Positions 1,981 to 52,994 of a DNA stretch of 64,000 nucleotides are shown here, piece after piece. The position numbers were made by a program, and so were the translations under genes. The notes below the pieces were generated by a model. It made no database searches, had not been told where the DNA came from, and saw nothing but the letters and a program-made list of their open reading frames with translations. Numbering within the stretch: position 1 is the first letter of the stretch; the number at the start of each line of letters is the position of its first letter. The stretch is from an uncultured virus (IMG/VR IMGVR_UViG_3300020214_000011) (taxonomy: Duplodnaviria > Heunggongvirae > Uroviricota > Caudoviricetes): IMG/VR virus record IMGVR_UViG_3300020214_000011; one strand, given 5' to 3'.

Positions 1981-4900
1981 GTGGCTCGCCTCGAACGACA
2001 CCTGAGAAAAAGCCCGGGTGAGAAGTCGCTCGGGCCGACCGTCGGCGGTGCGCCGAGGAACCTGAACCCGTTCACCGCGAGGGACGCCGACCTGGACATG
2101 GTGGTCCTGGAGGGCATTGCGACGGTCAACTTCGGTCGAGGCGTCCCAGACCCGACACCCGGCGGAGCCGCGGAGACGCCGTCGGCGCCAAGATTGAGAT
2201 CGCCCCTCTACGCGACCAACGAGGATTTCGCCGTCGCGGCGATGTCCGGCCCGAATCGTCGCCCGAGCATCAGCGAGGAAAAAGACCCAGGTGACGTGAG
2301 GAATCCAGACGGTCATTTTCCGCGGCAAGCCGGACCGATGTGGAGGGACACGAGTTTCACGGCCCTGCACCTCGCGCCGAGGGAGCGGAGGGGCACGAGC
2401 CCGGCTTCGGTCAACACGTATCTCCACGCCGAATGGACCGAGCCGTACTGGGACGCCGTCAGGGACGACACGGGGATATGGAACTCCCCGCCACCGCCGG
2501 AGATGGAGGTCGAGCGCGCCATCTACGACGCAATGAAGAGAGAGACGATAGAGGTCGGCGGGTACAACGTTCCGTTCCCCCAGCACCCGAAGGAGTCCGA
2601 CTACGACCAGTACACGGACTCAACGGGCGCCACCGTCAGGCACCTCACTGCCACCCGAAGTTTCCCCTTCCGCAATAGGGAGAACCCGAGGTGGACGGAC
2701 GGGCACCCGCTGTACCACGCAACCCCGACCGGCGCGTTGCCGCGGATAGTCGCGGAGGGACTGGTCGCAGGCACCGACCGCCAGCTGTGGTTCGGGGCGT
2801 CACCGACGGTGTGGAACGAGCAATTCCCGCACAACGCCGCCCGCCAACTGAAGTCACCGATCAAGGGAATGTCGTTCCTGCGGATCAGCCCGACCCAAAC
2901 GATGAACGAGAGGCTCTCCCGCCTCGCGAAGGTCAGCGATGTCGATCGGGCAACGGTTCCCGGGCCCCTAGCGATAGATTCGGCTGGGAATCTGATCGGG
3001 CCGAGGGATTCCTGGGCGCAAATTGCGGTTGGTCTCCTGAGCGACGCCCTGTGGTTCAACGACATCAAGATACCGACGGAAAACATCGAGGTTCTGAGTC
3101 AGACCGGAGAATGGATCCCGTTGTACAGGACGGACCTCTCGGACGTGGTTGCTGATCCCACGAGCGGGCCCGAGGCCGGGATGGCGAAAGAAAAGAATCG
3201 CGGCATCAGAAGAATCCTTGCGTCAATAACGAACGGCAAACACGGCGACGACGAGGGGGCGGACGAACAAAAACCCGCCTCCAAGCCCCCCGCCGAGGTC
3301 CCGGTGGTGGCGCAAATACCCAACCCGGAACCGAGGATCAAATACTCAGACTCCTACGGCGGCGACGACCTCATCAAGAACGAGCAGAGAATCGTGCGCA
3401 TAGACCACGAGGGATTGGTGGCTGCGGGCCGCTGGAAAGACATCCACGGTGACCATTACGACTGGTGGGCGTACCCGATAGACAGGGGGAGCGGCCAGTA
3501 CGGCGAGGCGTTCAACGTGGCCGGCGAGCCACTCCGGAGGTTGAGGGAAGACCCGGAATTCCTGGCCAGCCTCGCGCGGGAAATAGAGATACAGGCCCTC
3601 GCCCTGGGTTGGTCGTTGTACGACCAGGACTGGGTGGAAAAGCTCGACTGGGAGAACGGCCAGGACTGGAGACGGGCCTACCCGACGAGGCTGTGGAAGG
3701 CAACCAGATCGGCGCAGATATTCGGGCTCCAGAGGGAGTTCGAGTCGATGCTCGCATTGCACGACTCGCTCGCAGCCGGGGGGGTGCGATTCAACCACGA
3801 GGATTACTGGGAATCACCCGGGACGGTCGACGATGTCCCGTCGCTGGGAAAATCGTGGAAGGAGAGGCAAGAGGAGTGGAGACAGCGGTACCCCGCGAGC
3901 GACGCCACCAGCTGGACGAGCCCGCACCGCCCGCTGCCCCAGGGTCCCAAGCGGGGTTCCGACGATTCACAAATGACGCTCCTAGAGGAGGATCGGGTGT
4001 GGGACGCCTACGACAGCTACACAACTCCGATCTTCCCGGTCGTGTCCGACGCCGAGGAGCTAGCCGACATCCTGTCGGAACCTGACGAGATGATCGAGTT
4101 CGGTTACCCGTACGAGCGAATCGACAAAGAAACGAGACAGCTGATCGCCGACGACATCTTCTTCGCCGTCTCCCTGTTGATGGACGGCGAGTTCCCCGAC
4201 GAGGAGTTCACGGACAGGCTGGAGTCCGCCGAACAAATGAGGCGATATGCGGACGGGCAGGAGGGCCTGTACCCGGAAGACAGGGACATCCTGTACGCCC
4301 TTGCCGACGCGCTGGAGAACCCGGTCTCGTTGTACGAGGACATCGGCTACGAATCAACCGACTCACCGGACGGCGAGGCGGGGATGGCAAGACGCTTCCG
4401 GCGCCTGGACGAAGAACCCGATTATTCGGATATGAGTTTGAGCGACACGGAGATACAGAACTTCATAGAGTCCGAAGCCGACGAGGTCACCGACGACCTG
4501 ATCTTCGGCAGGGAGGTGTCAAGGGCGTTCGCCCAGGAAGAAGACGAACCCATCCCGCGATCTGTCATACCAGTGAGACAAATATCAATCCCAACGCTGG
4601 AGGAAATTCCGGAGGACCTAAAACAGTCGTACATCAAGTTGTGGGCCGGAGGCGGGAGCTTCGTCGCCATAAATCGGCAGCTCGGAATATCCAACCATGA
4701 CGGCGCCGCCATACAAACGGCGCTCCTCAGAAGCGGGGAAATCCTCCCGAGGACCAAGCGCACCTCGGGGGACTCACTGCGTCTCACCCCCGAAGACGAA
4801 AGGGTCTTCGTCGAGTGGTCCAACGAAGGGGCCGATATGGACTTGCTGACATCGGTGTTCGGACTCACCGCCGGGCAGACCGCCGAGATCGCCGCAGACC

Positions 4901-7900
4901 TGAGAAGCCGGGGATTGATCCGCCGACGATTTCAAAAAAACTTTTTCACCGACAGTGAGCGAGACGCATTCGCGACCATCGTGAAGGAGGAACTAGCGAA
5001 AGGAAGAGGCATCTGGCCGCGTTCCGTGCTCAGGGCCCAGCGGGAGCTCGGATGGTCCAAGCAAAGAGCCCAGGCAATGCTCTTGTGGTACAAAACCCAA
5101 GTTAAGTTCGGTCTTATGCCCGGCATCAAGACCCAACTTTCCGATTCCGACATGATGAGGTTTGCCGCGCGATGGAACGACGGAGTGCCCGAGGAGCAGC
5201 TCGCGCGGGAGTTCAACGTCGCAGAGGGTTCCGTCAAATGGTTGGCTAGCAAGGCGAGAAAGCGGGGAATGCGCCTCAAGCGTCGCAACAGCACGGACTT
5301 GTCCGCCACGGACGGGTTGCGACGGAGTCCCTCACTTTCTCGGGAGTGGTTGTTGGGAGTAGAAAACGGCACGACATCGGGCGGGTACCAGGAGTTCATG
5401 GAGGGGATGCAAAAACGAGCGGTGGCACTATACCGAGACGGGAGGACGTACGGCCAGATCGCCAAGGAACTCGGAATCACCGGTGCTGACGCCAAGTACC
5501 TGGTGGACAGGGCCGCGACATCCGGTGAGAAGTCCCCACGCCGTAGGGGACCAAAATCAAAGGTCGCCGCCGCGCTCGGCATCACCGTGGACGAGCTGGT
5601 TGAACGGATGGCGGCAAGATACAACGAGGGCAAGACAGGCGCCGAGATGGCCACGGAATTCGGCACCACAATCGGCAACCTTAATCATTTCCTGAGGGTG
5701 GCGGGCAAAAGGGGTTTGTTGAAATTGAGGACGAGGCGACCGAAGACGTCAGTCAAACGCAACGTCACGGGAGCTTCCTCCCGAAAAACGAGACCGATCG
5801 ACGGATCCGACGGCGAGGCCGGGATGTCGGGCCCGGATTCGGCGGATCTGCCGGACGGAATAGACGGGGAACTAGAGGATCACGTCTACGAGGATCCGGT
5901 GTTCGGTTTGTCCATAAAGCATCCTCTCTTCTTCTGGTTCGCCCCGATCACCCCGGAAGTTGTCGACTTGATAAACGCGTCCTTCGCGAAAAAACGGGCG
6001 TCGGCGGACGAAGCCCTGAGACAAAAGAATTGGGGAAGGTACATATACCTACACGAACGCCCCTACCGCATCGACGCCTTCGAGGACGTCATGGACGAGC
6101 TGACGGACCAGGAGTACTGGAGCCGACTCTCGGACATATGGGTGGACAGCGAGAACATCGGGGCGCAACCCGATCGTTGGAGGAACCTGCTACTGAGCGA
6201 CCGCGGCTCGCGCGAGTCCTTCATGACGGAGGACGAGCGCGCGGAATTCGCGGCGTTGCAGCCACGGTTCACCGTGTACCGCGGTTATTCGGAGAACGAC
6301 CAGGAGGAGTTCGGAATGTCGTGGAGCACCGACGCGGGAGTGGCCGAGTGGTTCGCCAGGAGATTCGCAAGGGAAGACGAGAAGATCTTCATGGAGGAAA
6401 TGGAGGTCTCCAAGGACGACGTCTTCGCATATCTCACGCGGCGGGGCGAGGAGGAAATAATCCTCGACATGCGCACCGCGGCTGGTGGGACGGCGAGTAG
6501 ACGGGAGTTGCCGCGGAAACCCAAGACGAGAATACCCACGAGGAGCAGAAAATTGACTCCCCCGGATGGCGAGGCGGGGATGTCAAGGACAACGGAGAGG
6601 GGCGATCTGGTCAGGCTCGGCAGAAACTCGAATTATCCCAGCGGGTTGCAACCCGGATCGCTCGGCAGGGTCGCGAGAGTGGGCCGCGACGGAACCATCT
6701 CCGTGGAAATTGAAGGCGAGCTGATAAAACTGACCCCCGGCGAGGACCATTTCCTGGTGATCCCGAGGCAGTTTGACGTCCTGTACGAGCTGACGGACAA
6801 CGACGGCAACGTGATTTACCTACCAGTCGAGGACGTGACGTACCCCCGGCTCACCAGCGCCAGGGAGGAAGCGGCAAAAGCTGGGTATAGAGAAACAGGA
6901 ATCATCCGAGGAAACATGCGAACATTTTTTGACGACGCCACGGGTACCTACAAGACGGAACGGACGGAGTTTGAGGTGATCGGCGCACAGAACATCCGGC
7001 CGGAAACGACGGCACCGGTTACGAGGCAATCCACAGACACTCCCGACGGCGAGGCCGCGATGTCCTCCCAAAAAATCCCCAAATTCAACGGCGGCCACAG
7101 CAGCAAGGGGAGGGGGACTCCGTCGGGTGACGGCAAGGACTTGGCGATGAGGGACGTGGCGGACAGCGCCATAGTCGAGTTGGCGAACGACGAGAGGAGC
7201 AGTTCGCGGACGACGCTCGAGACGCTCGGGTCGTACCGGGCCGGGAGCATGGTCGTGATGCTGGCGAGAAACGGTGAGCTCCGGGGCATCCCGCTGAGGG
7301 ACGAAACCATCCAGGCAATAACGAAAGCCCACGACGACGGTGCGATGTTCGTCGTCGGGGACATGCCGGGCGTGGATTCGCAGTTCGTGGAATTTTTGGA
7401 CAAAATCGGGGCCGACTACACGATCTACCATGCGGGGAGTTCGCCGAGGTTCCGTCCGCAACCGCCCGACGCGCGCGGGGACGCGCCGTCCGAACTCCTC
7501 GCGCGCGTGACCGACGAGGACGCGCAGCTCAATCTCCTTTACTCGGTCCCCGGGGTCGCCGCCAGCGTCAGGATGAGGAGCACCGACGGTGCGCCCGTCG
7601 CCCCGGGCAAGAACGCAATCATGAAGCCGTACCTCCTGGCTCCGCACATAGACGTGAACGGTTTGGACGCGTCGGACCCGGCAATCCAGTCCCTTTCGCC
7701 GGCACTGAAGGCCGCCGGGTTGGGAACCTACAAAGTCACCGGGCACTCGACCCCCAAGGTCCAGGGACCGGTGGTGAAGGAGTTCGCGGACAGGCTGATA
7801 GGTCCCAGTGCCGTCGCCGACGCCGTGCTCGGAACGTTCCCGACCGCGGACGAGATGCTGACGATATACGCAGTAAACGCACTCATCAGGGCGAGGGCGG

Positions 7901-9069
7901 AGTACCTTTCCGACTCCGTCCTCAACGCGGACCAAGTAAACGAGGCGATCCTGTTCGGAAATGTCATGCTCGTGGGCCCAAAATTGCCCCAGGACCTGTG
8001 GGACATCCCGCAGGTCGGCACCTCCTTGTACCTCGACCCGTTCAGCTACTTCAAGAACTATTCCAACTTCCTCAAGGCCGTGATCGACGCGTTGCCGGAG
8101 CAGGTCAGATCCAGGCTGGGGGGCGGTCCCGACGACCGTGATGACGCCCAACGGTACTGGGGGGACACCTCGCTCTTCGAGGGCATCATAATCAGGGAAG
8201 ACGACGACATCTCCAGAAGGTTCGCCCCCATGATCAGGAAGCAGGCGGGAATAGTGTTGGACCACGCCAGGCGACACGGCGAGCTGACGAGGAAGTGGGC
8301 GCAAACCGCCTACGACTTGATGAAGGAGGCTGGCCTGACGGACGCAGAGGTGGCTTTCGTTGTCAACGAACACTGGACGAAAGCATCAACGTTCAAACTC
8401 GCCACGGTGCAACCGGGGAACGTGCTGGGTCACGCGGCGAGGCTGGGCGTGAAGGCGTTCTCCTCGAGGTACTCGCCGATAAGCCGGGCCATCACCAAGC
8501 GCATCGAAGCCGTCCAATCCGGGGGCCTCCGCGAGGAAGAGGATTTCGGCCTGCACGAGTTCTTCCACCACTACCTGGGCCAGGGTTTCACCAGGCACGG
8601 GGAGTACGTGGCGTTCAGGGGTCCGGCCGATCTGATCGATTCCTACCACGGGCACATGCAGTGGGCCTGGAACGACACCGGTCAGCTTGGGATGTTCGTC
8701 TCCAGGATCATGACGCAGGAGTTCGGCCGCGGCAAGACCGACGAGCCGGAGTTCGGGTATTCGCGCACACTCCATGACGCCATCGGCAGGGCCATCTACG
8801 ACAGGCTGAAGGAGATGCTCTCCTCGGCCGAGGACAGGCGAAAAATAATGGATCAGGTGTTCCCGGAATTCCACGGGTCGCCCAGCGAGGACGAGGCGAA
8901 GATCAAGGCGCTGATCCGAAGGCAGTTCGCAGGGCGAGACCTTGAAAGGGTCCGCCAATTTGCGGATTTGATGCCCGTCCTCAGACTGCTCACGGTGCAG
9001 GACCTGCTGGTGCCGAAGATGTACTACCCCTACGGGGGAACGAGTAAAATAATCGGGGGGAGCAACTGA
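1981..9069 (+). CDS. Giant multidomain (polyvalent) protein A, 2362 aa: shared N-terminal motif, Tpt1/KptA-like ART, OGFr-like domain, HTH array, R-S-E ART, DUF4314-like domain, SLOG-like domain, HExxH zincin
   Basis: Long open frame with a GTG start after a G-rich RBS. Motifs LYHAT...I..EGL; HYDWWAYP; YRDGRTYGQIAKELGIT; VYRG...SWSTD...GEEEII; FVVGDMPGVD; HEFFH. Five EAGM/EAAM delimiters. Confidence 0.8.
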   Translation: MARLERHLRKSPGEKSLGPTVGGAPRNLNPFTARDADLDMVVLEGIATVNFGRGVPDPTPGGAAETPSAPRLRSPLYATNEDFAVAAMSGPNRRPSISEEKDPGDVRNPDGHFPRQAGPMWRDTSFTALHLAPRERRGTSPASVNTYLHAEWTEPYWDAVRDDTGIWNSPPPPEMEVERAIYDAMKRETIEVGGYNVPFPQHPKESDYDQYTDSTGATVRHLTATRSFPFRNRENPRWTDGHPLYHATPTGALPRIVAEGLVAGTDRQLWFGASPTVWNEQFPHNAARQLKSPIKGMSFLRISPTQTMNERLSRLAKVSDVDRATVPGPLAIDSAGNLIGPRDSWAQIAVGLLSDALWFNDIKIPTENIEVLSQTGEWIPLYRTDLSDVVADPTSGPEAGMAKEKNRGIRRILASITNGKHGDDEGADEQKPASKPPAEVPVVAQIPNPEPRIKYSDSYGGDDLIKNEQRIVRIDHEGLVAAGRWKDIHGDHYDWWAYPIDRGSGQYGEAFNVAGEPLRRLREDPEFLASLAREIEIQALALGWSLYDQDWVEKLDWENGQDWRRAYPTRLWKATRSAQIFGLQREFESMLALHDSLAAGGVRFNHEDYWESPGTVDDVPSLGKSWKERQEEWRQRYPASDATSWTSPHRPLPQGPKRGSDDSQMTLLEEDRVWDAYDSYTTPIFPVVSDAEELADILSEPDEMIEFGYPYERIDKETRQLIADDIFFAVSLLMDGEFPDEEFTDRLESAEQMRRYADGQEGLYPEDRDILYALADALENPVSLYEDIGYESTDSPDGEAGMARRFRRLDEEPDYSDMSLSDTEIQNFIESEADEVTDDLIFGREVSRAFAQEEDEPIPRSVIPVRQISIPTLEEIPEDLKQSYIKLWAGGGSFVAINRQLGISNHDGAAIQTALLRSGEILPRTKRTSGDSLRLTPEDERVFVEWSNEGADMDLLTSVFGLTAGQTAEIAADLRSRGLIRRRFQKNFFTDSERDAFATIVKEELAKGRGIWPRSVLRAQRELGWSKQRAQAMLLWYKTQVKFGLMPGIKTQLSDSDMMRFAARWNDGVPEEQLAREFNVAEGSVKWLASKARKRGMRLKRRNSTDLSATDGLRRSPSLSREWLLGVENGTTSGGYQEFMEGMQKRAVALYRDGRTYGQIAKELGITGADAKYLVDRAATSGEKSPRRRGPKSKVAAALGITVDELVERMAARYNEGKTGAEMATEFGTTIGNLNHFLRVAGKRGLLKLRTRRPKTSVKRNVTGASSRKTRPIDGSDGEAGMSGPDSADLPDGIDGELEDHVYEDPVFGLSIKHPLFFWFAPITPEVVDLINASFAKKRASADEALRQKNWGRYIYLHERPYRIDAFEDVMDELTDQEYWSRLSDIWVDSENIGAQPDRWRNLLLSDRGSRESFMTEDERAEFAALQPRFTVYRGYSENDQEEFGMSWSTDAGVAEWFARRFAREDEKIFMEEMEVSKDDVFAYLTRRGEEEIILDMRTAAGGTASRRELPRKPKTRIPTRSRKLTPPDGEAGMSRTTERGDLVRLGRNSNYPSGLQPGSLGRVARVGRDGTISVEIEGELIKLTPGEDHFLVIPRQFDVLYELTDNDGNVIYLPVEDVTYPRLTSAREEAAKAGYRETGIIRGNMRTFFDDATGTYKTERTEFEVIGAQNIRPETTAPVTRQSTDTPDGEAAMSSQKIPKFNGGHSSKGRGTPSGDGKDLAMRDVADSAIVELANDERSSSRTTLETLGSYRAGSMVVMLARNGELRGIPLRDETIQAITKAHDDGAMFVVGDMPGVDSQFVEFLDKIGADYTIYHAGSSPRFRPQPPDARGDAPSELLARVTDEDAQLNLLYSVPGVAASVRMRSTDGAPVAPGKNAIMKPYLLAPHIDVNGLDASDPAIQSLSPALKAAGLGTYKVTGHSTPKVQGPVVKEFADRLIGPSAVADAVLGTFPTADEMLTIYAVNALIRARAEYLSDSVLNADQVNEAILFGNVMLVGPKLPQDLWDIPQVGTSLYLDPFSYFKNYSNFLKAVIDALPEQVRSRLGGGPDDRDDAQRYWGDTSLFEGIIIREDDDISRRFAPMIRKQAGIVLDHARRHGELTRKWAQTAYDLMKEAGLTDAEVAFVVNEHWTKASTFKLATVQPGNVLGHAARLGVKAFSSRYSPISRAITKRIEAVQSGGLREEEDFGLHEFFHHYLGQGFTRHGEYVAFRGPADLIDSYHGHMQWAWNDTGQLGMFVSRIMTQEFGRGKTDEPEFGYSRTLHDAIGRAIYDRLKEMLSSAEDRRKIMDQVFPEFHGSPSEDEAKIKALIRRQFAGRDLERVRQFADLMPVLRLLTVQDLLVPKMYYPYGGTSKIIGGSN

Positions 9070-9272: not shown

Positions 9273-9340
9273 GAAATATACGTCTATAATTGTTTGATGA
9301 TTGTCAAATCCCGTCGCCGGGAATAGAGGATAAAGGGCAG

Positions 9341-12300
9341 ATGTCGCCAACCCCGTTCAGAATTCCGTTCAACGCGAAAATCGTCGCCAGGCACGGAACG
9401 ACGTCCGTGTACGCGCTCAGGGATGGGCGCCTCGCCTTCGTCGACCACACCAAGAACCGCACCTTCTTCGACGGGAGCAGGGACGTCGGGACGGGGACCT
9501 ACGGGTCCGGTCACAACTCGGCGTGGGCCGACTCGCGCATCGTCGCCGTCGCGTCCAAGGGCGGCTCCGCCTCGTTCGCACAGACCAAGGCACTCAAACC
9601 GAAACAATCCAGGGTGCCACAGGAGGCGCCGGACCAGCCGGGGGAGGAGATTCCCGACGAAGCTTTCTCGCGATTGATGCCGATGATCCCGAAGGAGTTC
9701 CTCGATTGGGCGGCGTCGTACGAGATCGGCGACCCGCTGCCCCCGATGATGCCGGGTTACGGCGGGAGGACGCTGTGCAGTAAATCCATAAACGACACCT
9801 CCTACTCGCAGGACGACTTCGGGGTGGACCAGGTCGTCGAGCGCGTCCTCGCGGACATGGGTTTGCCAGACATAAACCCGGCCCTCGCCTTCGCCCCCGA
9901 GATCGAGACCAAGGGCCTCCCGCGGATGGAGCAGAAGGGCATCCTCGGCAGGGAGATCAGGGACATGGCGCGCAACATCGTCGACTCGATCCTCACGGCG
10001 AGGGGCCTGTGGAAGGACGAGCTGAACAAGATTCGCTGCGGGTCGGGGCCGAACGCCAACAGGTTCACCGACATCTTCGGGACCGGTTGCGACGTGCCGG
10101 GCGCCGACATGGCCGGCAACATCGTCGGCGCGATAAGGGCTGGGGTGGACGTTCCCGGTCCGGTGGACGAGGTGGCGGGGAAGATCGAGGGGGCGAGGGA
10201 GAGCGTCGCCGACGCGGCCGACGGAATTGACGTCCCGGGCGGAAAATCGTCCCTCGGCGAAAGGCTCAGGATGGCGCTGACGAGGGTCCGGGGCGGGCAC
10301 ACGCCGCACTACGTGGCCGACATGCCAGGCGACATTGACCCGGCAGCCGGCATGTCAGACGTGTTGAACAGGAGGTCCGACAAGAGGGGAGGGTTCCTGT
10401 TCGTCCGATCTCTCGTTTCGCGCAACAAACGGCGCGAGCGCGCCAAGAAGGCAGTGGGTCGTTTCGAATCCGCGGAGAAGATGGCCAGGGAGGCCTTCGC
10501 CACGCGCGAGTACCGCGACTGGGAGCAGGACTTCACGCTGAGAAAAGGCAGGCTGCCGAACCAGGGCGAGAAACTCAACTGGTTGGCCGAGCACATCGGA
10601 TGGAAAGGACAGTTCAGGGATGCGGCCGGCAAACTAGTGACGGACGAGCACGGCAACCCGGTGGGAAGCTTCGGGGGGTTGGCCGACACCGCGGTCGTGG
10701 ACGGGGTCGTGACCGACATGACCCATTTCGAAGCGATGGTCGAGCAGATAGTGCGCGACCCGAGATTCGTGGAGGGCGGTAATTTCGACAGGCTGAGCGA
10801 GGCCCAGAAGAGACGGCGCAGGGAGGAGGTCGCAAGGAACATATACGAGTACGGGCTCCAGACCCTGTTTGCGATGAAGAACGCCGGCGGACCGGAGAAG
10901 ATAGAGCAGATCCAACCCGACGGGAGCAGGATCCTGGTAGACAACCCGGAGCACAAGAAACGCTTCGCCGAGGTAATACCGACCCATTTCCGCGTAATTC
11001 ACCCGACAGACCCCAGCAACTTCCGTGGACTCGCGGATGCGGCAGTGGTCACCGGGGTCAACAGTTTCGAACCGGGATTTGATGACGAGATCGACTTTGT
11101 CCCGTTGCTGGGGACAGATCGGCGGATGACTGCGGGACGACCGCTCACGGCGGGCGTGCAGCGCCATGGAAGGGTCGCCGGTTCTCTGCCGTTGTACGCG
11201 CATGAGAACCAGACCCGTGGAGGCGAAATTCCGTTCGTGGCCTCCATAAGCCTGAATCCGGTGTGGTTCACCGACCGGCAAACACAGAAGGACAAGCTCA
11301 AGGCCTTCGGCGGTGACCACCTGGGGATGGACATAAGCAGGGAGGCGTTCTGGGCGCACACCGCCGACCACGAGCTGAACCACGTAGACGACTTCGCCCA
11401 GAGACTCGGGAACAAGCTCGGATACTGGGGGGAACTCGGCGGCGGCCGGGAGGAGTGGATGCGGAGGCTGTCGCAGCAAACGTACACGCGCACGCCCACG
11501 GGTGGTTATTGGTCGAACGTGATAGACCTCCGCAAGGACGCGGCCAGCTACACGTTCCTCGGGCAGCAGATCGCGGAACTCGACGCCAAACTCGCCGCGG
11601 CCACGACGACCTACGAGAGACAGAAGGCGATTTGGTTCTTCTACATGCAGAACATGAGGTTCAACGAGCGGACGATGTCCGACTTCGCAAGGTGGATGAA
11701 CAGATCGGGCGCCGGTTTCACGCCCGGCAAGCGCCTTTCGAAGGCCGAGCAGGCCGCGATGCTCACAGAGATCTTTGAAAACCTGCGGGCGCGCGGCTAC
11801 TCCGAGGAGCACGGGGTGCCAACCTTCAGTTTCTGGGAAGACATGATGGACACGCCTCTGGGTTACTGGGACCCAGCGACGGGGAAGTTCGAGTTCCCGA
11901 TGGACCCGCGCACCGGGCGCCTGAACCCGTACCCGCTGAACGTGATGAACCTGCAGCCGAAGTGGACGGGAAGAAGAACCCCGGCGAATGTTCCCTTCTC
12001 GGAAAACGTGGCCACATTTGGGATTGAACTCGATCCGGCACGCTTCGGGCCTGGACGGGACCCGTACGGGCAGGCGAGGCTTGACAACTCCGTCTCCAAC
12101 CTCCTGCACGGATACATAGGGGGGACCTACGCCGGCGAGGACGACTATGAATTCGCGGCGGAGCTGAGGACGCAACTGAACAAACAGGGCGCGCTCGCCG
12201 ACGTCAGGGAGTTCCTCGCCGACCCCGCCCGCAACATACACCAGCTCACCGAAGCCGACTTCATGACGCTCGTGGCCAGATACGTGGGGACGGACGAGGT

Positions 12301-15300
12301 GCACAGACTCTACGGGGAACCGGTGCCGGGACCAAGAGCACTTCCCGATGGTGTTATCGGCCCGGGAGGCGGGGCACCCCCGCCACCTGGCGCGGGTGGG
12401 CCACCGGGCGGAGCACCGAGAGGACCGATGATCCCCCTCGGGCCAGGCTCGCCACCAAGGACGCCCCCTGATGGGGGAGGCGGCGCCACTCCGCCCCCAG
12501 CCTCCCCCGGATCGCGTGGGACCGCCACCGGGCCGACGATTCCGACGGTGCCACGAGCCGACGACCCAGACATTCCCACTCCCGACGATACGACTCCGCC
12601 CCCAGCCTCCCCGCGGTTGCGCGGAACCGCCACCAGGCCGACGATTCCGATGGTGCCACGAGCCGACGACCCAGACAATCCCACTCCCGACGATACGACT
12701 CCGCCCCCAGCCTCCCCGCGGTTGCGCGGAACCGCCACCAGGCCGACGATTCCGATGCGTCCGTCGGACGAAGGTCCAGAAGCTCCCGGCGACGCCCCGG
12801 AGCCCGAGGCTCCATCGAGGGTCCGTGGCACGGGAGTCAGGAGACCGACCAGGCCGACGACCGACGACGATCTCGTAGAGCCGACGGTCAGACCCGAAAC
12901 CGACGCGGATCGCGTTTCGCCGGAAAGACGCAGAGCCGACGCGGACAGGGAAAGAAGGGTGCGCGAGCTGTTCGGCGACGAAGAAGATCCAGCCGAAAGA
13001 GAGCGTTCCGGGACGAGAACAACCGACTCCGCGGAGGAGACTTCGCCCGATCGCCCGAGAACGACGGCATCTGCCGCGAGGGACGAACTCAACGCCGCTC
13101 GAAAGAGGGCGCGCGACAGGCGTTTCGCGGAGCGGGAGGAAGCGGACAAAAGGGCGGAAGAAGCATCCCGCAGGATGGCGGAAGCCAGGTATTACGAGGG
13201 CGTCTACGGGGACGTCGAGCAAGCAGTGGAAGATGCAAAACGCAACATCCCGTCCGATAGTCGAATCAACCCTAGAGATCGCGAAAGGCGCGTTCGCACA
13301 ATGGACGAACAAGTTGCGGCGAGGCGCAAGGCGCTTGATAAGGCATCGGCCGCGACCGATCCAAAAGAACGCAGGGGGCAGCAAATAGTCGCCGCCGCGC
13401 TAGAAGCGGAATTGATGTATAAAGCTGGGCAAATAGATTACAGAACCAACGAGCGCCGACAAGCGGACCTGTCGGTCCTGGCCGACCTAAACGGAACGCC
13501 ACTCTACCGGGACGACCAAGGCATGTTCAAATTGGAAAGCAGCGTTCCGGAATGGCAGAGAACCGAGGGACCCGACTCGATCGACGATTCGGCCGAATCC
13601 GTCGCTTCTAGAACGGCTTTGGCCGAAAGAATGTTCGGAGAGAGCGAAGCCTCGGAACTCTTGGGCACTCGTTCTTCCGAGACCGACGGACCCACCGCCG
13701 ATTCGCAAGCGGACAGGTTGAGGCTGAACCAAATTCGCGAGGAACGAGTCAACGCCACGGCGCGCGTAGCGGACGCGGAAACTCGCCACGACGAAGCCCT
13801 CAGGAGGGCGAGGCGCACGGGATCCGATCCCGACAGGGGAGGGGACGGCGACCCGGCGGCGTGGGCGGATTACAGGGCGGCCTACGAAGAATTGAACGAG
13901 GCGGACGCCGAGAACGCCAGGCTGCTGCGCGAGTCCAGGGAGCTCGAGGATCGGATACCGAAGAGCGAGACACCGACGCCCGCCACGACCAGGGATCCCT
14001 CCAGGAGATCGTACGAGCGACCGGAAACTCCCGAAGGCATCATCGTGGAAGGCGAAACCCCGCAACGGCAGATACGAATGATCAACCAGACCACGGGGGA
14101 AATAATTTACGTGGATCCGAGCAACGCTCGCATCATGGATGAAGTCAGGGCAGAGGGCTTCGCTCCGGACGTGAGGCAACCCACCGCTCCCGCCAGGAGA
14201 CAGGCCAGTGGGCGAGAAAAACCGCGAACGAAACCCGCACGTGAGCCCGATTGGGTGAGACGCGAGCGGGCCCGACGTGATCGGGCGGGATTGGCCGACG
14301 ATATTCCCGGATACGACGACGAGCCGGATGTGGGAATGGCGCCTCCGGTCAGGAGGGGATCGGATTCCGACGGGGTGAGGGAGTTCCTGGAGGAGGGCGA
14401 CGGGGCCTTCATGACGCCCGAGCAGGCCCGCCTGCAAAGGGACGGAGCCGTCGAGCGCCGGGAGTCGGCCATCTCGCAGCGCGAGAGGTTGATAAACGAG
14501 AGGGACGGGGTTGAGAACGGCGTCGTCGGACGCAACCTGACGGACGATCAGGCGCAGAGACGGGTTGAGGAGCTGAACCGCCAGATAGCCGACCTGGAGA
14601 GAAGAATAGACGACCACGAGAGAACCGCGGAGTTGTTCTCGGAGCACGCACGGAAACTCGAGGAGGGAATCCCCATCAGGGGGAGACGAGGCGGCGACGC
14701 TGAAGCAGGGATGGCGCTTTACAGGCCGAAGAACGTCGTCACAACGACGAACGACCCACCGACTTCAATGAACCCGGGAACGATAACCTCGGACGGAGGA
14801 TTCCAGGCTTACACGTTTGATTTTGCGACTTACGAATTCGACGGGCCCGACGGCATGGAACGAATAATCTTCGAGGACCCGAATCTCGTCAACATGGACG
14901 ATCCCTCGATTCGGGTCATCCCGAGAAATCCGTACGCGATCACCGGGACCGACGAGTTGAGCGAAGAGGGTCGGAGCTTGGCGCGCAGGTACCATCTCGC
15001 AAAGGCCGGTTTGATGGAGAGGAACCGTCTCGCTGGCGAGAAGGACCAGTACGATGTTGACGGCTACGTCGATTCCCTGCTCTACAGGGCCTCGATGGGT
15101 GACCCGGAAGCCGAAGCGCTAATTGCTGAGTTGTCGGATCTTGGCGAACAAATTCGGGAAGAGGCGAGGGCACGGAGAATAGCGAAAGACCTAGATGACA
15201 GCTTCGGCGAAATAGCCCAGTCGGAGATAGACGGGTCCAAGGGTGCCGCGACGCTGAAGGCTCTGACGCCCGATAAATTGGCCCTGGTCCACGAGACGAA

Positions 15301-18300
15301 ATACGAACCAAGAGTTCTCCCCGACGGCACCCTGGAGATCCAGCCGTTGGCCGATTTTCCGACGAACCCGCCTTCCGAAGGTCTCGACACGATCGACGGG
15401 AAACCGACCTACCCGAACGTAAACTACCCGCGTCACACCGTGCACTTTGGGGTCGGCGGGTTGGCCGGTGGCCACGTTCAAAGACAGAGCCCCAAGGACA
15501 TTGACCCGAACCAACGGGTGTGGGTGGTGGTGACCAATTTCGGTGAGGCCATGGATGCGAATCCCGGTTCCGTCGAAACGATGCGTCTGGAAGACACGAG
15601 TCTCACCCCGAGAGCCGGGGAGGGACTGAGATTTCCCCCGGGGACCTTCCGGATCTTGGAACTCACGGGGGACAAGAAGGCGGATTTCGCCACGATGAAC
15701 GGGGCGATTCTGGAGGTCGGCGGAACCCCACTCCCGGCAGACATGGACTATTCAAGGTACGGCGGCTCGGCCAGGTCCCGGAGGATATCTCAAATGGCCG
15801 CCGAGTTGGGTTTCCCCTCCGTTCTGGATGTCGACCATCCGAGCTCCCTGGGCCATCGGGGCTCAATGCGAAGGGGTAATTTCATCGATCGGCGCGAGGC
15901 TTTCGCAACGGCGTTGCCGATCGAAGAATCATCGCTCTCGATGCTCAGCGACAACAGTCTCGAGCGAATCAGCACCTCCACGCACACGTACGGCGGCGGG
16001 GTCGTTCGCTACGTGAATGATTCGGACACGTACATCGAGCTTTTCCCGCCGGACCTACAGGAGCGAATCGACCAGGGGCTCATCAGCAAGCGCGACGCAC
16101 GCAGAGAACTAACTGGCAGAGTTGAAGCCCGCAGGGCGGCACGGGCTCAATCCGCCGACGGGCCGAGCGCCGGCATGGCGAGGGGGACGAGCGAGGAAAT
16201 CTTCATGCGACCCGACGGAACCTTCGACATCGGCCCGGACACGGGTGGGCGCTCCGCCCTGCGACCGAGTCGCATTGACGAAGAAGTTGTGAACCAGGCA
16301 GTGATCCAGGCTAGGCAGGAGGTGGTCAGCGAGGTTCTCGACAACCCGTTCGCAACCGACCAAGACTTCGGGCGCGCCTCGCAGGCGATCGACCTGATGG
16401 AGGATGCGATCGGCGCGGACGCTGCCGAGCGGCTCAGGAACAGACTCGCGAGGGCGCGGGCAAGGCGAGACAGAAACAGTCCCCAAACGATGCCGGAAAT
16501 TAGACCGTACTTGATCAGGCCCCCGCAATACGGCGACGACTCGTTCGGGAACCGCAACCGCGTCGGCGACATGGCGCGCGCCATGTCGCGCCCCGACGAC
16601 CCGAGGAATCCGCCTCGCACCGCCACGGCGAGATTGGCGCACATGGACACCGCCAACTCGTCCGTCGCAAGGGACATAACTTACGACCCGCAAAACGGAG
16701 ACCTCACGGTCACCTACAACGACGACAGGGTCGTCACGTTCACCGACGTGCCGTACGAGCGCGTGCGCAAGGCGGGTTTCGACGACCTGCCGGACGACCT
16801 GATCAGCGAACTGGAGAACGAACAGAACCAGATGCGCAGCAGGCCAATCGGCAGGATGTCCGACGGCAACCGGGCCCGCAGGAACGTCTCGGGCCCGAGA
16901 CGATTGCTCTCCGAGGGGAACTTCCGGTCCAACGAACGACGGCAACCACCCGGCGCTGAGCAGTTCGACGATGGGCCGTCGGCCGGCATGGGCCGAACGT
17001 ACGAAACCCTGGTCGGCACGCACGCCAACGTCGTCTCCAGAAAACGAGACGAGTTGGCGAAGGCGCAACAAACGCTTGACGGGATAGGCACCCGCAGGGA
17101 CAAGGGGTTGGTGACCGAGGACGAGGCCAAGGCGGTCGCCTCTGCGTTCGCGGACCTGTTCTCCGGGGACATGAGGGTGCAGAGCAATTTTGAGGGGAGA
17201 CTGAGGACGGAGTTGCTCAGCGACGGTCGCACCATGGTCAGGTTGGATGCGCAAGTGAACTGGGAGGAGATGGTGCAGGTCCAGGACCTGACGAGCATCC
17301 CCATAACCATGCAAATAAAGTCCGCCGACGGAAAAACGATTTACGGGTACGCCTCAAGGAGGCTGGAGATAGGCGAGGACGGAATCACCGTCCATCACGG
17401 TTCCCTCACCATCTCGCCGGAGTACCGCGGCAAGGGGATAGCCAGCGAGTTCAACGCAAGGAACGAGAACCTCTACAAAGCCCTCGGGGTCAGGAGCATA
17501 ACGACCAGCGGATCCTCCTCCTCGGTTACGAGCACAAACAACCCGTTCGAGGACCAGGTGATCGGAACCGGCGCGACCCACTGGGCCCGCAACGGGTTCA
17601 CCTGGAGGGACGATGACGCGAAACAAAAATTCATCGGAATCATAGACTCGGCATTGTCTAGGAAGCCGGGAATCTTCTCGGACGAGGAGAGGCAGAGGAT
17701 ATCCTCCCTGTACAAGAGGGGCCGATCCGGGGACTTTCAGACGTCGGCGACCGCGGAAGAGCTGGTTGATTTCGAGGCCGCCGACAGATTGTTCGCCGAG
17801 GAAGGCGCGATCATCGGGTACAGGAGGGACCTGGCGCCCGCCGAGATTGCTGCTCCGAAACCGTCGAGACTCACCAGGATCGCCGACAGGCTCGGCCGGC
17901 GCTCCCGAAACCGGCGCGACGAAACGGACGGTCCGTCGTTCGAGCCGCCTCCCTGGGACCCGGATGCCGAGCTGGAGGAGGCGCTGGATGACAGGCGGGC
18001 CCGCCGAATCGCGGAGTCGCTGGCGGCGGCCGAGCTCCCGGATTTCGTCAGGGATTGGGACCCGGAAGCAGGGATGGCGGAGACGAGGAGGGCGAGATCG
18101 GCAGCGAAGAGACGAAACGCGGCCATGGCGAGGAACGTTGGCCCGGCACTCAAAGGGGACACGGATGTCAAAGAGAAAAGCGTGGACCCGGCGCCGCCGC
18201 CGTTCTCGCGAAGGGACTCGCAGAAATTGACCCAGGTGACTGCGGATTCCGACGCGCTCAATGCGTCGATCGTCCAGCAGAGAAAGGCCCTCGTCGACAA

Positions 18301-32042: not shown

Positions 32043-32974
32043 GAGAGAAGGCCACCAGGGAGGACGCCCTCAAGATCGCCCGCTACATGGGTTGCCGAGG
32101 GGCTCATCAGGGCGAGAACGGGGATTGGTTGCCGTGCGCCGACGCCGAGACGCTCAGTCGTCTGTCCTCGGCAGCGGAGGACGACGCGTGGTTGCTGCGC
32201 TTTCAAAAGGACGTGCATTCGGGGAACGGACCCGTCGGGGGCGTGGCGGCGAACGTGGACATGAACGGCAGGAGGAAGAGGGGCGTGAGACCGTTCGACG
32301 TGCCACCCCCGGAGTTCGGGGATGGCAAGTCGGCCAACAACTACACGAAGCCGAAACTGAGGGGGAGCATCAAGAATCGCATCATGGCGGGCTCGCAGGG
32401 GGGCAAGCCAGGGCAGTGGTCGGCGCGCAAGGCACAGCTCGTCGCGCAGGAGTACAAGAAGCGCGGCGGAGGGTACAGGGGAAAGAGAACCAAGAAGCAA
32501 CGCTCACTCTCCAAGTGGACCAAGGAGAAGTGGACGACATCGGACGGCAAGCCGGCGATACGCCAGGGCGGGACGAGGCGCTACCTGCCAGCCAAGGCCT
32601 GGTCAAAGCTGAGCCCGTCCCAGAGGGCCGCCACCAACAAGAAGAAGCGCGAGGGCAACAAGAGGGGACGACAGTTCGTTGCCAACACGGAAGCCGCGGC
32701 GAGGGCAAGAAAGACCTCCACCAAGTCCGGTTACCCAATCATCGTGAAAAAGACGCTCGTGATGCAGAGATTCACGGAGACGGAGGGTCGCGGACCAGGG
32801 CCGCGTCGCAAGAAGAGGGGCAAGAGATGGGAGAAGCTCACCGAAAGGGGTCCCTCCCAGATCGTTTCGACCCCGAACTTCGGCCTCACATCCAAGTCGC
32901 AGTCCATTGATCTGCAAAAGATCGGCACGGAAGTGAGACAAGTGTTGACGACCTCAAGATTTTTGGCGGACTAA
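32027..32974 (+). CDS. Basic protein (~315 aa) with a GC.G.H...W.PC motif and a DUF5872-like domain
   Basis: GSQGGKPGQWSARKAQLVAQEYKKRGGGY...SLSKWTKEKWTTSDGK. Start is uncertain. Confidence 0.55.
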   Translation: MGTAVREKATREDALKIARYMGCRGAHQGENGDWLPCADAETLSRLSSAAEDDAWLLRFQKDVHSGNGPVGGVAANVDMNGRRKRGVRPFDVPPPEFGDGKSANNYTKPKLRGSIKNRIMAGSQGGKPGQWSARKAQLVAQEYKKRGGGYRGKRTKKQRSLSKWTKEKWTTSDGKPAIRQGGTRRYLPAKAWSKLSPSQRAATNKKKREGNKRGRQFVANTEAAARARKTSTKSGYPIIVKKTLVMQRFTETEGRGPGPRRKKRGKRWEKLTERGPSQIVSTPNFGLTSKSQSIDLQKIGTEVRQVLTTSRFLAD

Positions 32975-49029: not shown

Positions 49030-49156
49030 AAAAACGCTACTTACACTACAAACTCAAGTATTCTGCTAACTTTGAATGCAAGACGCAAGCAGCGGGTGCT
49101 TACCTGGCGCTGTCTGGAAACAACAGCAAACAATACAACGCCCAGGAGGCAAAAAC

Positions 49157-50479
49157 ATGTCGCAAGACACGAGCAGACTCCGCGAGTTGCAGTCAGCGCT
49201 CCGTGAGAAGATGCAGCAGAACAAGGAAATTGCGGACTCGTTCCGCGTGGACAACGGAACGGTCGTCGTGACCACCGAGCAGAAGTCGGCGTTCGACAAG
49301 AACATGTCCGACATCCGCGAGATCAAGGGACTCATCGAGGGTCTCGAATCACTCGGCAAGGTGCAGGACTGGGGTTCAACCTCGGCAGACGCATCGATCG
49401 CCGCCCAGGCAGCAGCCATCACGCCAGTGGTGCAGTCGCCTAGGTCGATCGGCCAACAGTTCGTCGAATCGCCAGAGTTCAAGTCGCTCCAGGGCGGTCG
49501 CAACGGCGCGAACATGGCAGCTCCGTGGCAGTTCAACGGCTCGCTGACCCAGTACGGCGCAAAGGACGTCTACACCTCGATGGCGACGGGCAACCTCGCC
49601 AACGGTGCTGATCCGAACTTCGGAACAGTCCAGCGCGACCCGATGGTCACCCAGCCGACGAGGACGAAGCGAGTCAGGGACTTGTTCCCGTCGCGCTCGA
49701 CCACGGCCTCGACGATCGAGTACTTCCGTCACTTCGGATACACGACGCCTGGCACGACTGCCGACAACAATGCTGCACCGGTCGCCCAGCGCGATGGTGC
49801 CGCATTCGCTGCGAAGCCACAGTCGAGCCTCCAGTTCGTCGCAGAGTCCGCTTCGGTGCGCACGCTTGCCCACTACGAGGCAGCGCACCGCAATGTGCTC
49901 GCAGACGAGCCGCAGCTCCGAAGCATCATCGACAACGAGCTCATGTACGGCCTGCGCCTCCTCGAGGACACGCAGATCCTCAACGGCAGTGGCACGGGTG
50001 AGAACCTGAGGGGCGTCCTCCAGACGACGGGAATCCAGGAATACGACTGGTCGTCGGGTCAGACCGGGGACAACAGGGGAGACGCGATTCGTCGCGCCCT
50101 GACCCTGTCCTTCTTGGCCTACTACGAGCCGACCGGCGTGGTCATGCACCCGAGCGACTGGGAGAAGATCGAACTCTCGAAGGACGACAACGGCCAGTAC
50201 CTGGTCGCGGTTTCCGTGGCTCTCGGCGGTCAGCCGAGGCTGTGGAGGACCTCGGTCGTCGAGTCACCGGCAATCGCCGAGGGCACCGCTCTCGTCGGTG
50301 CGTTCGGTACCGGCGCCCAGCTGTACGACCGCGAGCAAGCGAACATCAGGGTCAGCGAGCAACACGCCGACTTCTTCGTCCGCAACGCGATCGTCATCTT
50401 GGCCGAGCAGCGCCTGGCGCTCGCGGTCAAGCGTCCGGAGGCCTTCGTCAAGGTCACGTTCGACAGCGCGCCAGTCTGA
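49157..50479 (+). CDS. Major capsid protein, HK97 fold, with an N-terminal coiled-coil delta (scaffold) domain
   Basis: AGGAGG RBS. Typical segments VRDLFP, LADEPQLRSIIDNELMYGL...EDTQILNGSG, VVMHPSDW..I.LSKD.NGQYL, FVRNAIVILAEQRLALAVKRPEAFV. Confidence 0.93.
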   Translation: MSQDTSRLRELQSALREKMQQNKEIADSFRVDNGTVVVTTEQKSAFDKNMSDIREIKGLIEGLESLGKVQDWGSTSADASIAAQAAAITPVVQSPRSIGQQFVESPEFKSLQGGRNGANMAAPWQFNGSLTQYGAKDVYTSMATGNLANGADPNFGTVQRDPMVTQPTRTKRVRDLFPSRSTTASTIEYFRHFGYTTPGTTADNNAAPVAQRDGAAFAAKPQSSLQFVAESASVRTLAHYEAAHRNVLADEPQLRSIIDNELMYGLRLLEDTQILNGSGTGENLRGVLQTTGIQEYDWSSGQTGDNRGDAIRRALTLSFLAYYEPTGVVMHPSDWEKIELSKDDNGQYLVAVSVALGGQPRLWRTSVVESPAIAEGTALVGAFGTGAQLYDREQANIRVSEQHADFFVRNAIVILAEQRLALAVKRPEAFVKVTFDSAPV

Positions 50480-50492
50480 TCTGATCTGAGCT

Positions 50493-50548
50493 GACGCGAA
50501 GGCGTCGCCCCCGTCCTAGCCGAGGAACATTCGGCCGGGGCGGGGGCG
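50493..50548 (+). terminator. GC-rich stem-loops after the capsid gene (possible terminator without a U-tract, or a 3' stabiliser)
   Basis: GACGC-GAAG-GCGTC, followed by CGCCCCCG...GCCGA-loop-TCGGC...CGGGGGCG. Confidence 0.5.
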
Positions 50549-50624
50549 TCGTCCTGTCGGGGACTTACCACGACGAAAGAATTTTCGTGGGACAATTGTC
50601 CCAAGAATCAACCGGAGAAAATCC

Positions 50625-52994
50625 TTGGACCCAAACGAACTACTCGCTAAGCTGGTCTCAGGCGAGCTCTTGGTCGTCGTCCAGCAGGAACCGACGAAGC
50701 CAGTCCAGACCAAACCCAAGCTCGCGCCCGAGGAGCAGGAGCTAGCCGACTCGCTTGTGGCGATAGCGAGGAAGTACGGGAAGTTCAACGAGGACGAGAC
50801 CGGGATCTGGGCGGGCTACGAGGCCGCCAAGGACAACGTCGTCGCGCACATCGGGGTGAGGTGCGCCAACTGCGCCCTGTACGAGGGCAACGGCGTGTGC
50901 AAGATCATCGCCCAGAAGGTCGAGGACGGCGGCAAGTGCAGGTTCGCCGTGATACCTGACGGGGTGGTCGGCGGCGTCTACGACCCGGCCAAGGCCCCGG
51001 TGATTCCCGTCAGCTCGGGGAAGAGGAAGATCAAGGTCAAGGAGGAATCGGCCACCTCGTGCCCCAAGGCGACCAGGGACATCGCCACGAACCTGAAGAA
51101 CAGGGCGAAGGCGATCAAGACTGCGATGTACGGGCCGCTGAACCCGAAGGAACCGAACGAGGCCTTCTACAAGAAGCTCGGCGCCGAGTGGGACGTCTCG
51201 GCGGACCAGGCGCGCAAGCAGAAGTGCGGCAACTGCTCGATGTTCATCGTCACGCCCGAGATGAAGTCGTGCATCGAGAAGGGCGTGACTGGCCCCAAGG
51301 GCAAGGACGAGTGGGAGGCGATCGACGGAGCCGGCCACCTCGGGTACTGCGAGGCCTTCGACTTCAAGTGCGCCTCGGAGAGGACCTGCAGGGCGTGGGT
51401 GACCGGCGGTCCGATCACCAAGACGAAGTCGGTGAACGTCCGCCAGTCCGTGAAGGCGCTCGGGGCAACCATAGGCGGCAACGTGTCGGTAACCGACGCG
51501 GCCGACATGATCGACCGGGACAGTGACGGAATGATATTCGACGGAACGCCGGACGAGCAACCAGTCAAGAAGAAGCCCGGTCGCGGCCAGCCATATCAAA
51601 GAATGGACAACTCCTTCCTCGAGAAGCGCAGGAGGAGGCACGTCAACCGGTCGCTCAGGGAGCAGGGCATAACCCCGACTCAGGGCAACCAAATACACGA
51701 ACACGACGACGGATCGCTTCATACTTACGGACGCAGCGACGAGGAGAGGGAGGCGAGGGGACAAGCGAGGGCCGACTTCACCGTCGAAGAGGACAGAAAG
51801 AGGTTCGTCAACAATCAATTGCGCAAGAGGGGAATAAAACCAGCTGAAGGCAACTTTACTGTTGATCCGGAAACTGGAGGAAAATACTGGAACGCTCCAA
51901 ACAGAAGCGACGAGGAGCGTCAGGCCAGGCGAGAGGCGAGGGATGAGTACAACCGCCGCATGAACGCGGGCAAGCCGAGACAGAAGCCGTCCACCGGGGA
52001 ACCCGCCAAACCGCCGGTGAAGTATCCACCTGGATACGTTCCCGGCCTGCCTGCCGACAGGTACCCTGACCCTGGTGCGTACGTTCCAGGTAAACCGGCC
52101 GATCGTTACCCCCAGGCGCAGAAGCCGGGAGTTCGCTTCCCCACGGCCGACGACGCCAGGAAGGTAAACGAGCGAAAGTTCCCGCCCCCGAGGGGCTCGG
52201 CGAAACCGAGCACCGGCGGCGTCGTGGACGACGGAAGGTACATCAACGAAAACCCGCAGTTCTACGACTTCCAGACCTGGGAGGACAGGCAAATCCTCGA
52301 CCAGCGCAATGACAAAAAGCGCCAGGCCGCACACGACGCGGCCAAGGCGCGTTACGCCGCAGCGGAAAGGGAGAGGGCCACCAGAAAAGCGGAATCAAAA
52401 CGGCCGACTCCTCCGTCCGCACCGCAAAGGACTTCAAGTCGCCCCACCACTCCGAGCCGGGAACCGCGCAATCTGAAGGAACGATTGGTGACGAACGTTT
52501 TCAAAGACGATGAGAGGCGCTCAAGCAACGGCACGGCCCGGGACCGCGACACGCGACCGGCACCGAATCGGCCCACGGGGGGAAACCGCGACACGCGACC
52601 GGCACCGGATCGGCCAACGGGGGGAGACCGCGACACGCGACCGGGGGACCCACCGCTTCGCGCTCGCATTCCCGAACCTGGATCACCGCCGCAACGAACC
52701 ACGGAACCGGGCAGGTACGGACGTCCCGGCGATCCACCGCTTCGCGCGCGACGACCTGGACCTGGAGACCCACCTCCTCGGACGGAAATAGTTCCGAGGG
52801 GCGACGACGACCGACGACCAAGGCCGGCGACCATCAATCCTCGCGAAATTCCTGGCCGCGACGTGCAAAAGAATCCTCCGTCTCGTACGAAACCGATAAC
52901 CAGAACGCCGAATCCGAACCGCAGAAATCCCGACTCCGACCGAGATCGCCGACCGCGCACTGGAAGGAACTTCGGTCAGGAGCGTGGTAAGTGA
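50625..52994 (+). CDS. Putative virion protein (789 aa): two Cys-rich small domains, a variant of the shared motif and a Pro/Arg-rich repetitive tail
   Basis: TTG after GGAG. RCANCALY..CKII..CRF; CP.AT...NLKNR...YGPLNP...CGNC; KALGATIGG...DRDSDGMIFDGTP. Confidence 0.65.
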   Translation: MDPNELLAKLVSGELLVVVQQEPTKPVQTKPKLAPEEQELADSLVAIARKYGKFNEDETGIWAGYEAAKDNVVAHIGVRCANCALYEGNGVCKIIAQKVEDGGKCRFAVIPDGVVGGVYDPAKAPVIPVSSGKRKIKVKEESATSCPKATRDIATNLKNRAKAIKTAMYGPLNPKEPNEAFYKKLGAEWDVSADQARKQKCGNCSMFIVTPEMKSCIEKGVTGPKGKDEWEAIDGAGHLGYCEAFDFKCASERTCRAWVTGGPITKTKSVNVRQSVKALGATIGGNVSVTDAADMIDRDSDGMIFDGTPDEQPVKKKPGRGQPYQRMDNSFLEKRRRRHVNRSLREQGITPTQGNQIHEHDDGSLHTYGRSDEEREARGQARADFTVEEDRKRFVNNQLRKRGIKPAEGNFTVDPETGGKYWNAPNRSDEERQARREARDEYNRRMNAGKPRQKPSTGEPAKPPVKYPPGYVPGLPADRYPDPGAYVPGKPADRYPQAQKPGVRFPTADDARKVNERKFPPPRGSAKPSTGGVVDDGRYINENPQFYDFQTWEDRQILDQRNDKKRQAAHDAAKARYAAAERERATRKAESKRPTPPSAPQRTSSRPTTPSREPRNLKERLVTNVFKDDERRSSNGTARDRDTRPAPNRPTGGNRDTRPAPDRPTGGDRDTRPGDPPLRARIPEPGSPPQRTTEPGRYGRPGDPPLRARRPGPGDPPPRTEIVPRGDDDRRPRPATINPREIPGRDVQKNPPSRTKPITRTPNPNRRNPDSDRDRRPRTGRNFGQERGK
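52543..52644 (+). repeat. 42-bp in-frame tandem repeat, about 2.4 copies (RDTRPAPxRPTGGx)
   Basis: accgcgacacgcgaccgg at 52543, 52585 and 52627. Confidence 0.85.

Follow-up and report, generated by a model that had tools for sequence, protein, structure and literature searches.

A DxDxD-loop motif as a candidate header of giant head-operon proteins in an uncultured lake phage

We have analysed a stretch of DNA from an uncultured tailed phage (IMG/VR record IMGVR_UViG_3300020214_000011, Caudoviricetes), which we will call the window. It comprises 64,000 nt of a virus contig of 71,538 bases, and the whole contig was used for the six-frame search. An earlier note on this DNA had described a peptide motif in five otherwise unrelated proteins of the head region and had proposed that it is a tag for loading them into the capsid. 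All five stretches translate on the plus strand as they had been quoted, in the open reading frames (ORFs) g1981, g20300, g26056, g33049 and g50625. The sites of this element, the D-motif, are the following:

2023..2163, plus strand: Lys site, linker and long D-motif, residues 15-61 of g1981
20411..20545, plus strand: Lys site and long D-motif of g20300
26737..26871, plus strand: Lys site and long D-motif, residues 228-272 of g26056
33364..33510, plus strand: Lys site, linker and long D-motif, residues 106-154 of g33049
51453..51575, plus strand: Lys site, linker and short D-motif (DxDxDG..DGT..E.P), from residue 277 of g50625

These ORFs have 2362, 916, 1849, 5243 and 789 amino acids (aa), respectively. 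Searching all six frames of the contig with a profile of the five copies gives no sixth one; the best E elsewhere is 4.3. When a copy is left out, the four long ones are recovered at E 7e-15 to 5e-17 and the short one of g50625 only at E 0.012, compared with 2.1-4.3 for the best stretch which is not a site. Once the motifs are masked there is no BLASTP hit at E<0.01 among the five proteins plus g9290 and g23973, so that they are indeed otherwise unrelated. The position of the motif is less uniform than had been claimed. It starts at residues 15 (g1981), 42 (g20300), 106 (g33049) and 228 (g26056), in the N-terminal part as described, but at residue 277 in g50625, which is 35% into the chain. 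Lys sites precede the motif, but the copy at 20423 in g20300 has its Lys 4 residues upstream, at 20411, and not immediately before it. The presence of a single copy per protein extends to all distinct instances of the long form (63/63). The long form also precedes the first DxEA[GA]M-type joint, or AGM joint, in all proteins which have one (18/18); here the description is empty for g50625, which has no such joint, and g20300 has only PVAAM.

The motif is a composite of a Lys site, a core with a DxDxD..E loop and a lineage-specific extension; the stretch quoted earlier joins the Lys site and a linker to the conserved core. In the position profile the core has D/N1, D3, D5 and D/E10. The short form has D1, D3 and D5 in 100% of cases, as required by the pattern which defines it, and D/E10; the long form has D/N1, D3, D5 and E10. 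The extension IN.GRG..DPTP is limited to the phage group of the window. AlphaFold2 models of 50 residues (long form, pLDDT 74) and 34 residues (short form, pLDDT 82) have no helix of at least 4 residues and share a beta-bridge at equivalent residues: the core is predicted to be a compact loop closed by this bridge. An EF-hand was rejected, as neither model has flanking helices and the calmodulin matches cover the loop only. Fold searches with both of these short models gave no match in pdb_via_wide, BFVD or PDB Foldseek. Sequence searches of the PDB returned only calmodulin-type loops and chance hits. The ESM Atlas gave no usable feature hit, and its structure rows are SLT_2 proteins with TM 0.38-0.44, under the bar of the tool. 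The predicted complex of two capsid proteins with Ca and the motif has a score of 0.02 and a mark of 0.32, which counts neither way.

The pattern of the Lys site, K[AS][LI]G, was counted in four contigs. All 34 occurrences are among the 82,984 residues of the head operons, with none in the 36,319 residues outside, some of which belong to spurious ORFs. It lies at most 45 residues upstream in 10/49 copies from large proteins, a set collected by a Lys-free DNA pattern (background mean 0.7). In a second set the looser pattern [ETVIF]K[ASG] is found within 40 residues in 38/62 copies (background mean 8.6), and of the 63 distinct instances of the long form 54 have a Lys site no more than 45 residues away. 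The cut of HK97 gp5 at K103/S104 (PMC10275583) has the context K-S-L-G, and the major capsid protein of the window matches the gp5 fold at E 2e-60. The likeness to the removal of the gp5 delta domain thus concerns the capsid fold and the context of the cut. The differences are that similar sites recur here in many non-capsid proteins, and that the window capsid has an invariant K135-D136 at the position aligned with K103/S104. Upstream of the Lys site a short peptide [FY]KA..F recurs in several cargo proteins, in the window at 26530-26560 (residues 160-166 of g26056) and also in the orthologues of the related genomes G010, G012 and G022 and in L251 and L263; it is a candidate for a removed loading signal.

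The D-motif is not the sole tag which the cargo could have, since g9290 and g23973 carry another element instead, with the pattern RC[PG]..[GN].FT[DN]..C. We will call it the RCP header:

10034..10090, plus strand: alternative header RC..FT[DN]..C of g9290, 34 residues behind a Lys site
24402..24461, plus strand: alternative header RCP..FTD..C of g23973
26593..26640, plus strand: Lys site and start of a probably decayed RCP header in g26056

The last of these aligns with the intact RCP header of the G010 and G012 orthologues. NCBIfam has nothing for either header. In ten head operons every protein of at least 1000 aa has a header within its first 800 residues (34/34): 21 have D only, 12 RCP only and one has RCP and a loose D match. 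As background, the residues beyond these starts, 76,051 in number, contain 3 loose matches to D and none to RCP. In the 32 proteins of 650-999 aa there are 14 with no header, namely nine portals, two orthologues of g110, two short protease fusions and one g1981-like protein. The giants of G022 have no D header. The two headers swap in orthologues of one window gene, g26056: those of G000-G003 have D, and those of G010 and G012 have RCP, which follows an N-terminal region that is homologous. This replacement is the most telling new fact and supports a shared tag. In G012 the short generic form occupies the slot of g33049, which ties the long and short forms together. In 34 further records with the capsid family of the window, mostly fragments, 17 match a short profile, 15 a mixed profile and 19 either of them. 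Six operons of these records were then analysed and are within the ten-operon set. Two variants may be mentioned here. A cysteine-free form R.P.G...GGQF follows Lys sites in L249:4914-10049, in a protein which starts with a D-motif. In a g9290 orthologue (G001:C1, about 41950, residue ~1874) a degenerate internal D-motif is found just before an AGM joint.

Fusion proteins are informative on the stage at which the header acts. All six giant protease fusions have a D header behind the protease domain, with the core at residues 503-592. Portal fusions have 3-4 copies of the motif, one before each module and most of them close behind a Lys. Since such fusions should reach the head through the fused partner, we infer a role for the header once the chain has been cut. 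In addition the motif lies behind the predicted Lys cut, so that it would be kept on the packaged protein. Both features argue against capsid targeting of the T4 type. The earlier idea that one tag loads a whole string of modules survives in so far as the motif has the behaviour of a tag present once per cargo protein of the head operon, but loading as in T4 is not supported. AGM joints divide the giants further and carry no header. This would fit a chain which is delivered whole and cut only later, perhaps by HExxH domains; metallopeptidases (MPTases) have been proposed to cut polyvalent chains (PMC5512222). Lineages differ in the peptide of the joint: the window and G003 have EAGM, G002 has SGAM (23 copies), G010 has SGRM (13), and G009, G025 and G028 have RLSSG/RFSSG. 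The residue after the joint Met is mostly Ser, Ala or Gly. We rejected the joints as relic ribosome-binding sites: a 4-mer similar to a Shine-Dalgarno sequence precedes 29/65 joints, compared with 388/581 arbitrary Glu-Ala pairs.

Beyond these operons, a profile of 40 copies was compared with 1.84 billion representatives. The 134 hits are single-copy long forms, short forms and repeat proteins which match through several weak stretches. We set aside 47 repeat-type hits after a scan, 26 with Pfam families (MBG, cadherin, EF-hand, Excalibur, FG-GAP, TSP3 and others) and 21 with none; three further repeat-type hits lie outside that scan. In the 34 short-form carriers scanned we find a portal domain in 6, an S78 prohead protease in 3, ART-PolyVal in 6 and no Pfam family in 13. 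The short form was also searched for with a strict DNA pattern, to which the copies of the window do not conform. This pattern gives an estimated 480 stretches in IMG/VR (17/64 parts scanned). In 185,579 prokaryote genomes it gives 16 stretches on 11 contigs, 10 of them titled as metagenome-assembled genomes (MAG). Judged by eye most of these contigs carry the same small genes or giants as phages, and one is a fragment of 611 bases. The strict short-form pattern is phage-enriched; wide occurrence in cells, which would speak against a tag, was not found for it. Two motif queries had no match among 50,697 GenBank phage records, where short low-complexity queries are weak. The D-loop of the window is the local form of a phage-enriched module, which is also present in portal and protease fusions and in small proteins of the head and tail regions. 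For 23 small carriers the flanking genes were examined: five follow a protease gene, four follow a capsid gene, six precede a major tail or sheath gene and three are beside fibre-like genes. No structural neighbour is shown for the other five, of which one has PG_binding_1 and another matches LysM weakly. An 84-aa protein in L251:2772-3023 has the layout of a small carrier, with a short head and a Pro/Glu linker, but its end is another acidic motif, RAR..KGH..DDP.T..NE.

The genes which carry the headers in the window, together with the capsid gene, are:

1981..9069, plus strand: g1981, a multi-module protein of 2362 aa with a helix-turn-helix (HTH) region, a phrog_4776 domain, a C-terminal HExxH and five AG/AM joints
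9290..19990, plus strand: g9290, ~3550 aa, no D-motif, two HExxH, weak KTSC
20300-23050, plus strand: g20300, 916 aa, one HExxH
23973-26066, plus strand: g23973, 697 aa
26056-31605, plus strand: g26056, 1849 aa
33049..48780, plus strand: g33049, 5243 aa, DUF3721 at the start, Nudix and zeta-toxin-like kinase near the end
49160..50479, plus strand: HK97-fold major capsid protein, invariant K135-D136 with its codon at 49562
50625-52994, plus strand: g50625, 789 aa

About 11 DxEA[GA]M-type joints are found in g33049. HExxH is present in g1981, g9290 (2) and g20300; the window proteins have no Pfam peptidase hit. In the relative G003 the terminase gene, which is on the opposite strand, is followed by the portal, a prohead-protease fusion of 4578 aa, a gene of 531 aa, the orthologues of the window genes and the capsid; tail sheath and tube are upstream. 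Its portal, sheath and tube were assigned from sequence and position, the portal having no family hit. The contig of the window begins after the position of the protease fusion. Five close relatives have 4-7 copies of the motif each, and every match is inside the head operon, in which this phage group has about 45-65 kb of giant genes. The DNA of the window was found in lake metagenomes. Contigs from four lake runs cover all 30 bins of g33049, with no single piece spanning the gene, and no RNA run is listed among the sequencing runs as holding this DNA. The host is probably an actinobacterium, because similar genes lie on contigs binned with Acidimicrobiia.

Some other features of this region deserve mention. 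DUF3721 opens both g32027 (32027-32974) and g33049 (33049-33270), and G010 and G012 have a single fused ORF in place of the two. The gene g110 (110-1969) has two copies of a repeat LPDG/MEDG..PIAN..DL.NA, a weak phrog_80 match, an acidic linker and neither header. Tandem peptide repeats are found in g33049 (36370-36520, three copies of DDEPRAIVEPMPEFP), g9290 (12000-12260) and g50625 (52520-52760). Segments of the G003 protease fusion form a separate gene after the capsid in G009 (L277) and in G025, and the module of g23405 is fused to proteases or giants in other phages. Outside the window, the ORF G000:C1:64151-64840 resembles what we take to be an Ntn-hydrolase/proteasome-subunit protein.

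The motif resembles several known systems without coinciding with any of them. The capsid targeting sequence (CTS) of T4 consists of the first 10 residues of IPI-III, which are cut off (PMC9026906). It is also a short peptide common to unrelated head proteins and tied to cleavage by the prohead protease. However the motif of the window type has about 25-35 residues, begins at residue 15-590, is predicted to fold, has an interchangeable alternative and lies behind the predicted cut, whereas the CTS is removed. Excalibur (PF05901) is similar in the loop: in CbpL its DxDxDGxxCE binds Ca2+ via the same four positions and is unfolded without Ca2+ (PMC5137146). Like this and other DxDxDG calcium loops, the motif has D1-D3-D5 and an acidic position 10, is small, has little regular secondary structure and is attached to flexible linkers. 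It differs by the lack of the paired cysteines (there is no cysteine in our alignments, consensus or position profile), by its tail, GT..ERP or G..IN.GRG..DP, and by its presence in phage morphogenesis proteins and not in bacterial surface proteins. The best Excalibur scores in Pfam are 16.5 and 15.6 bits (2/30 proteins), with a cut-off of 22 and no match in the window proteins. In view of these scores and of the missing cysteines, the motif is not an Excalibur member. The proteins themselves recall the polyvalent proteins and the effectors fused to MuF or portal (Iyer et al. 2017, PMC5512222), which are giant, multi-enzyme, encoded in a portal-terminase context and predicted to be packaged. 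In G003 large multi-domain proteins are likewise encoded with portal and terminase genes, and HExxH motifs as well as ART-PolyVal, InPase, GNAT, Nudix and kinase domains are found among the motif carriers. As a difference, we have found no shared header motif described in that paper, and its main text uses "calcium" and "EF hand" 0 times. In the literature, mostly outside subscription journals, we have found no description of the motif; the supplements of PMC5512222 may list it. PHROG 7924 (112 aa, unknown function) matches the short form at its C-terminal positions 82-111; the copies of the window did not match phrog_7924 at E<=0.01.

Several explanations may be compared. The motif could be a loading address, which binds the prohead, a scaffold domain or the portal during assembly, pulls the fused string in and is not removed. 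The single copy per giant before the first joint, the header of all 34 giants and the location of all matches inside the head operon in the five close relatives agree with this idea, as do the N-terminal copies of some large proteins (19/62 within 40 residues of the start). We consider it somewhat unlikely. Portal and protease fusions would have no need of an address, yet they have kept the motif, up to four times. Near-identical cores accompany capsids of more than one family (phrog_10 and phrog_1623) and are also found next to tail genes, and the stretch before the Lys site is a closer analogue of the removed propeptide of T4. Folding on calcium is also unlikely in the cytoplasm, where heads assemble, and this counts against an address as well. 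At the opposite extreme the motif would have no protein function and be a repeat at the DNA level, or a mobile in-frame insertion spread by recombination, as might be thought of a short element found in unrelated genes and present or absent among related ones. This is hardly credible, and we have rejected it, as it is contradicted by the synonymous divergence of the copies. Invariant residues have mixed codons (D1 is GAT in 78 cases and GAC in 72, and for T12 four codons are found in about equal numbers). At fourfold sites the identity is 40% for different genes within a genome and 39% across genomes, and 126 pattern loci give 122 in-frame protein matches.

It is also unlikely, in our opinion, that the motif is a portable Ca2+-binding accessory with no routing role, active at the envelope of the cell or on a common ligand, for instance DNA. 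Its placement behind Lys sites would then only reflect tolerance of flexible insertions. One header per giant and the mutual exclusion and replacement of D and RCP are left unexplained, and the Lys site of the large carriers is missing in the small ones. The latter are nevertheless what gives this explanation its appeal: proteins of 60-230 aa with the motif on Pro/Glu/Lys-rich linkers, sometimes tandemly doubled, and fusions with PG_binding_1 (4/30 scanned, 2 above the cut-off), besides the weak LysM match, the weak Excalibur scores and the lack of a D header in the G022 giants.

The reading which we prefer, with a probability of about 0.45, is that the D-motif is one of two alternative header modules, a retained handle for holding or docking the cargo and for ejecting it; we find this likelier than a loading signal similar to that of T4. 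The parts of it observed directly are the presence of one header in each giant, the exchange of the two headers, the preceding Lys site and the conserved spacing D1-D3-D5-[DE]10. Its steps differ in confidence. The most confident one is that the giants would be packaged in the head. The next is that an HK97-type prohead protease would cut at K/[AS][LI]G; the header would stay on the cargo after this cut, probably dock the matured chain inside the head and lead it out at infection. In third place, the D-loop may bind Ca2+ and fold on it, as Excalibur does. The least confident step is that AGM joints might be cut later, after the handle has done its work.

Several facts weigh against a retained handle. 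The most important are the small carriers with the motif in mid-chain or C-terminal position, which are the main evidence against a pure header model and are unexplained by any tag model. In a pattern-collected set 51/78 complete instances are in proteins under 250 aa; K[AS][LI]G is upstream in 0/50 small carriers, and in 38/58 small proteins the motif is in the second half. Some carriers lie beside tail genes or 2OG-Fe(II) oxygenase genes, or have PG_binding_1 domains. Gly6 of DxDxDG is mostly lost in the long form (G in 8%), and the g1981-like protein of G012, with 784 aa, has neither header. The figure of 34/34 is to be read knowing that the header patterns were written after the sequences had been seen, that neither profile found three of the D calls (G009, G025, G028) and that the 34 giants correspond to about six orthologue slots, so that they are not independent; the swap may represent one or two events. 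Finally, concerted evolution was not shown: copies within a genome are 0.654 alike and those between genomes 0.644 (permutation p 0.06, with one copy mislabelled). This difference is not a clear one, so that the motif gives no indication of having co-evolved with a partner specific to the phage.

A further extension of the handle model, which we regard as quite unlikely, is that the ejected cargo of these lake phages has two interchangeable handles switched by the environment, a calcium-folded loop and a cysteine-closed loop. Both loops would lock in the free virion, in oxidising water rich in Ca2+, and release in the cytoplasm of the host. If true, it would represent a portable code for holding and release, by which enzyme strings of 5000 residues are delivered whole and cut afterwards. 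To our knowledge the selection, holding and ejection of internal proteins by HK97-type phages are poorly defined outside T4 and the giant phages. The header, the upstream propeptide and the Lys site are small separable parts, which could tell loading from ejection. Confirmation of the retained handle would make the header a marker of probable cargo of the virion in uncultured phages, and it could also be used as a handle for delivery.

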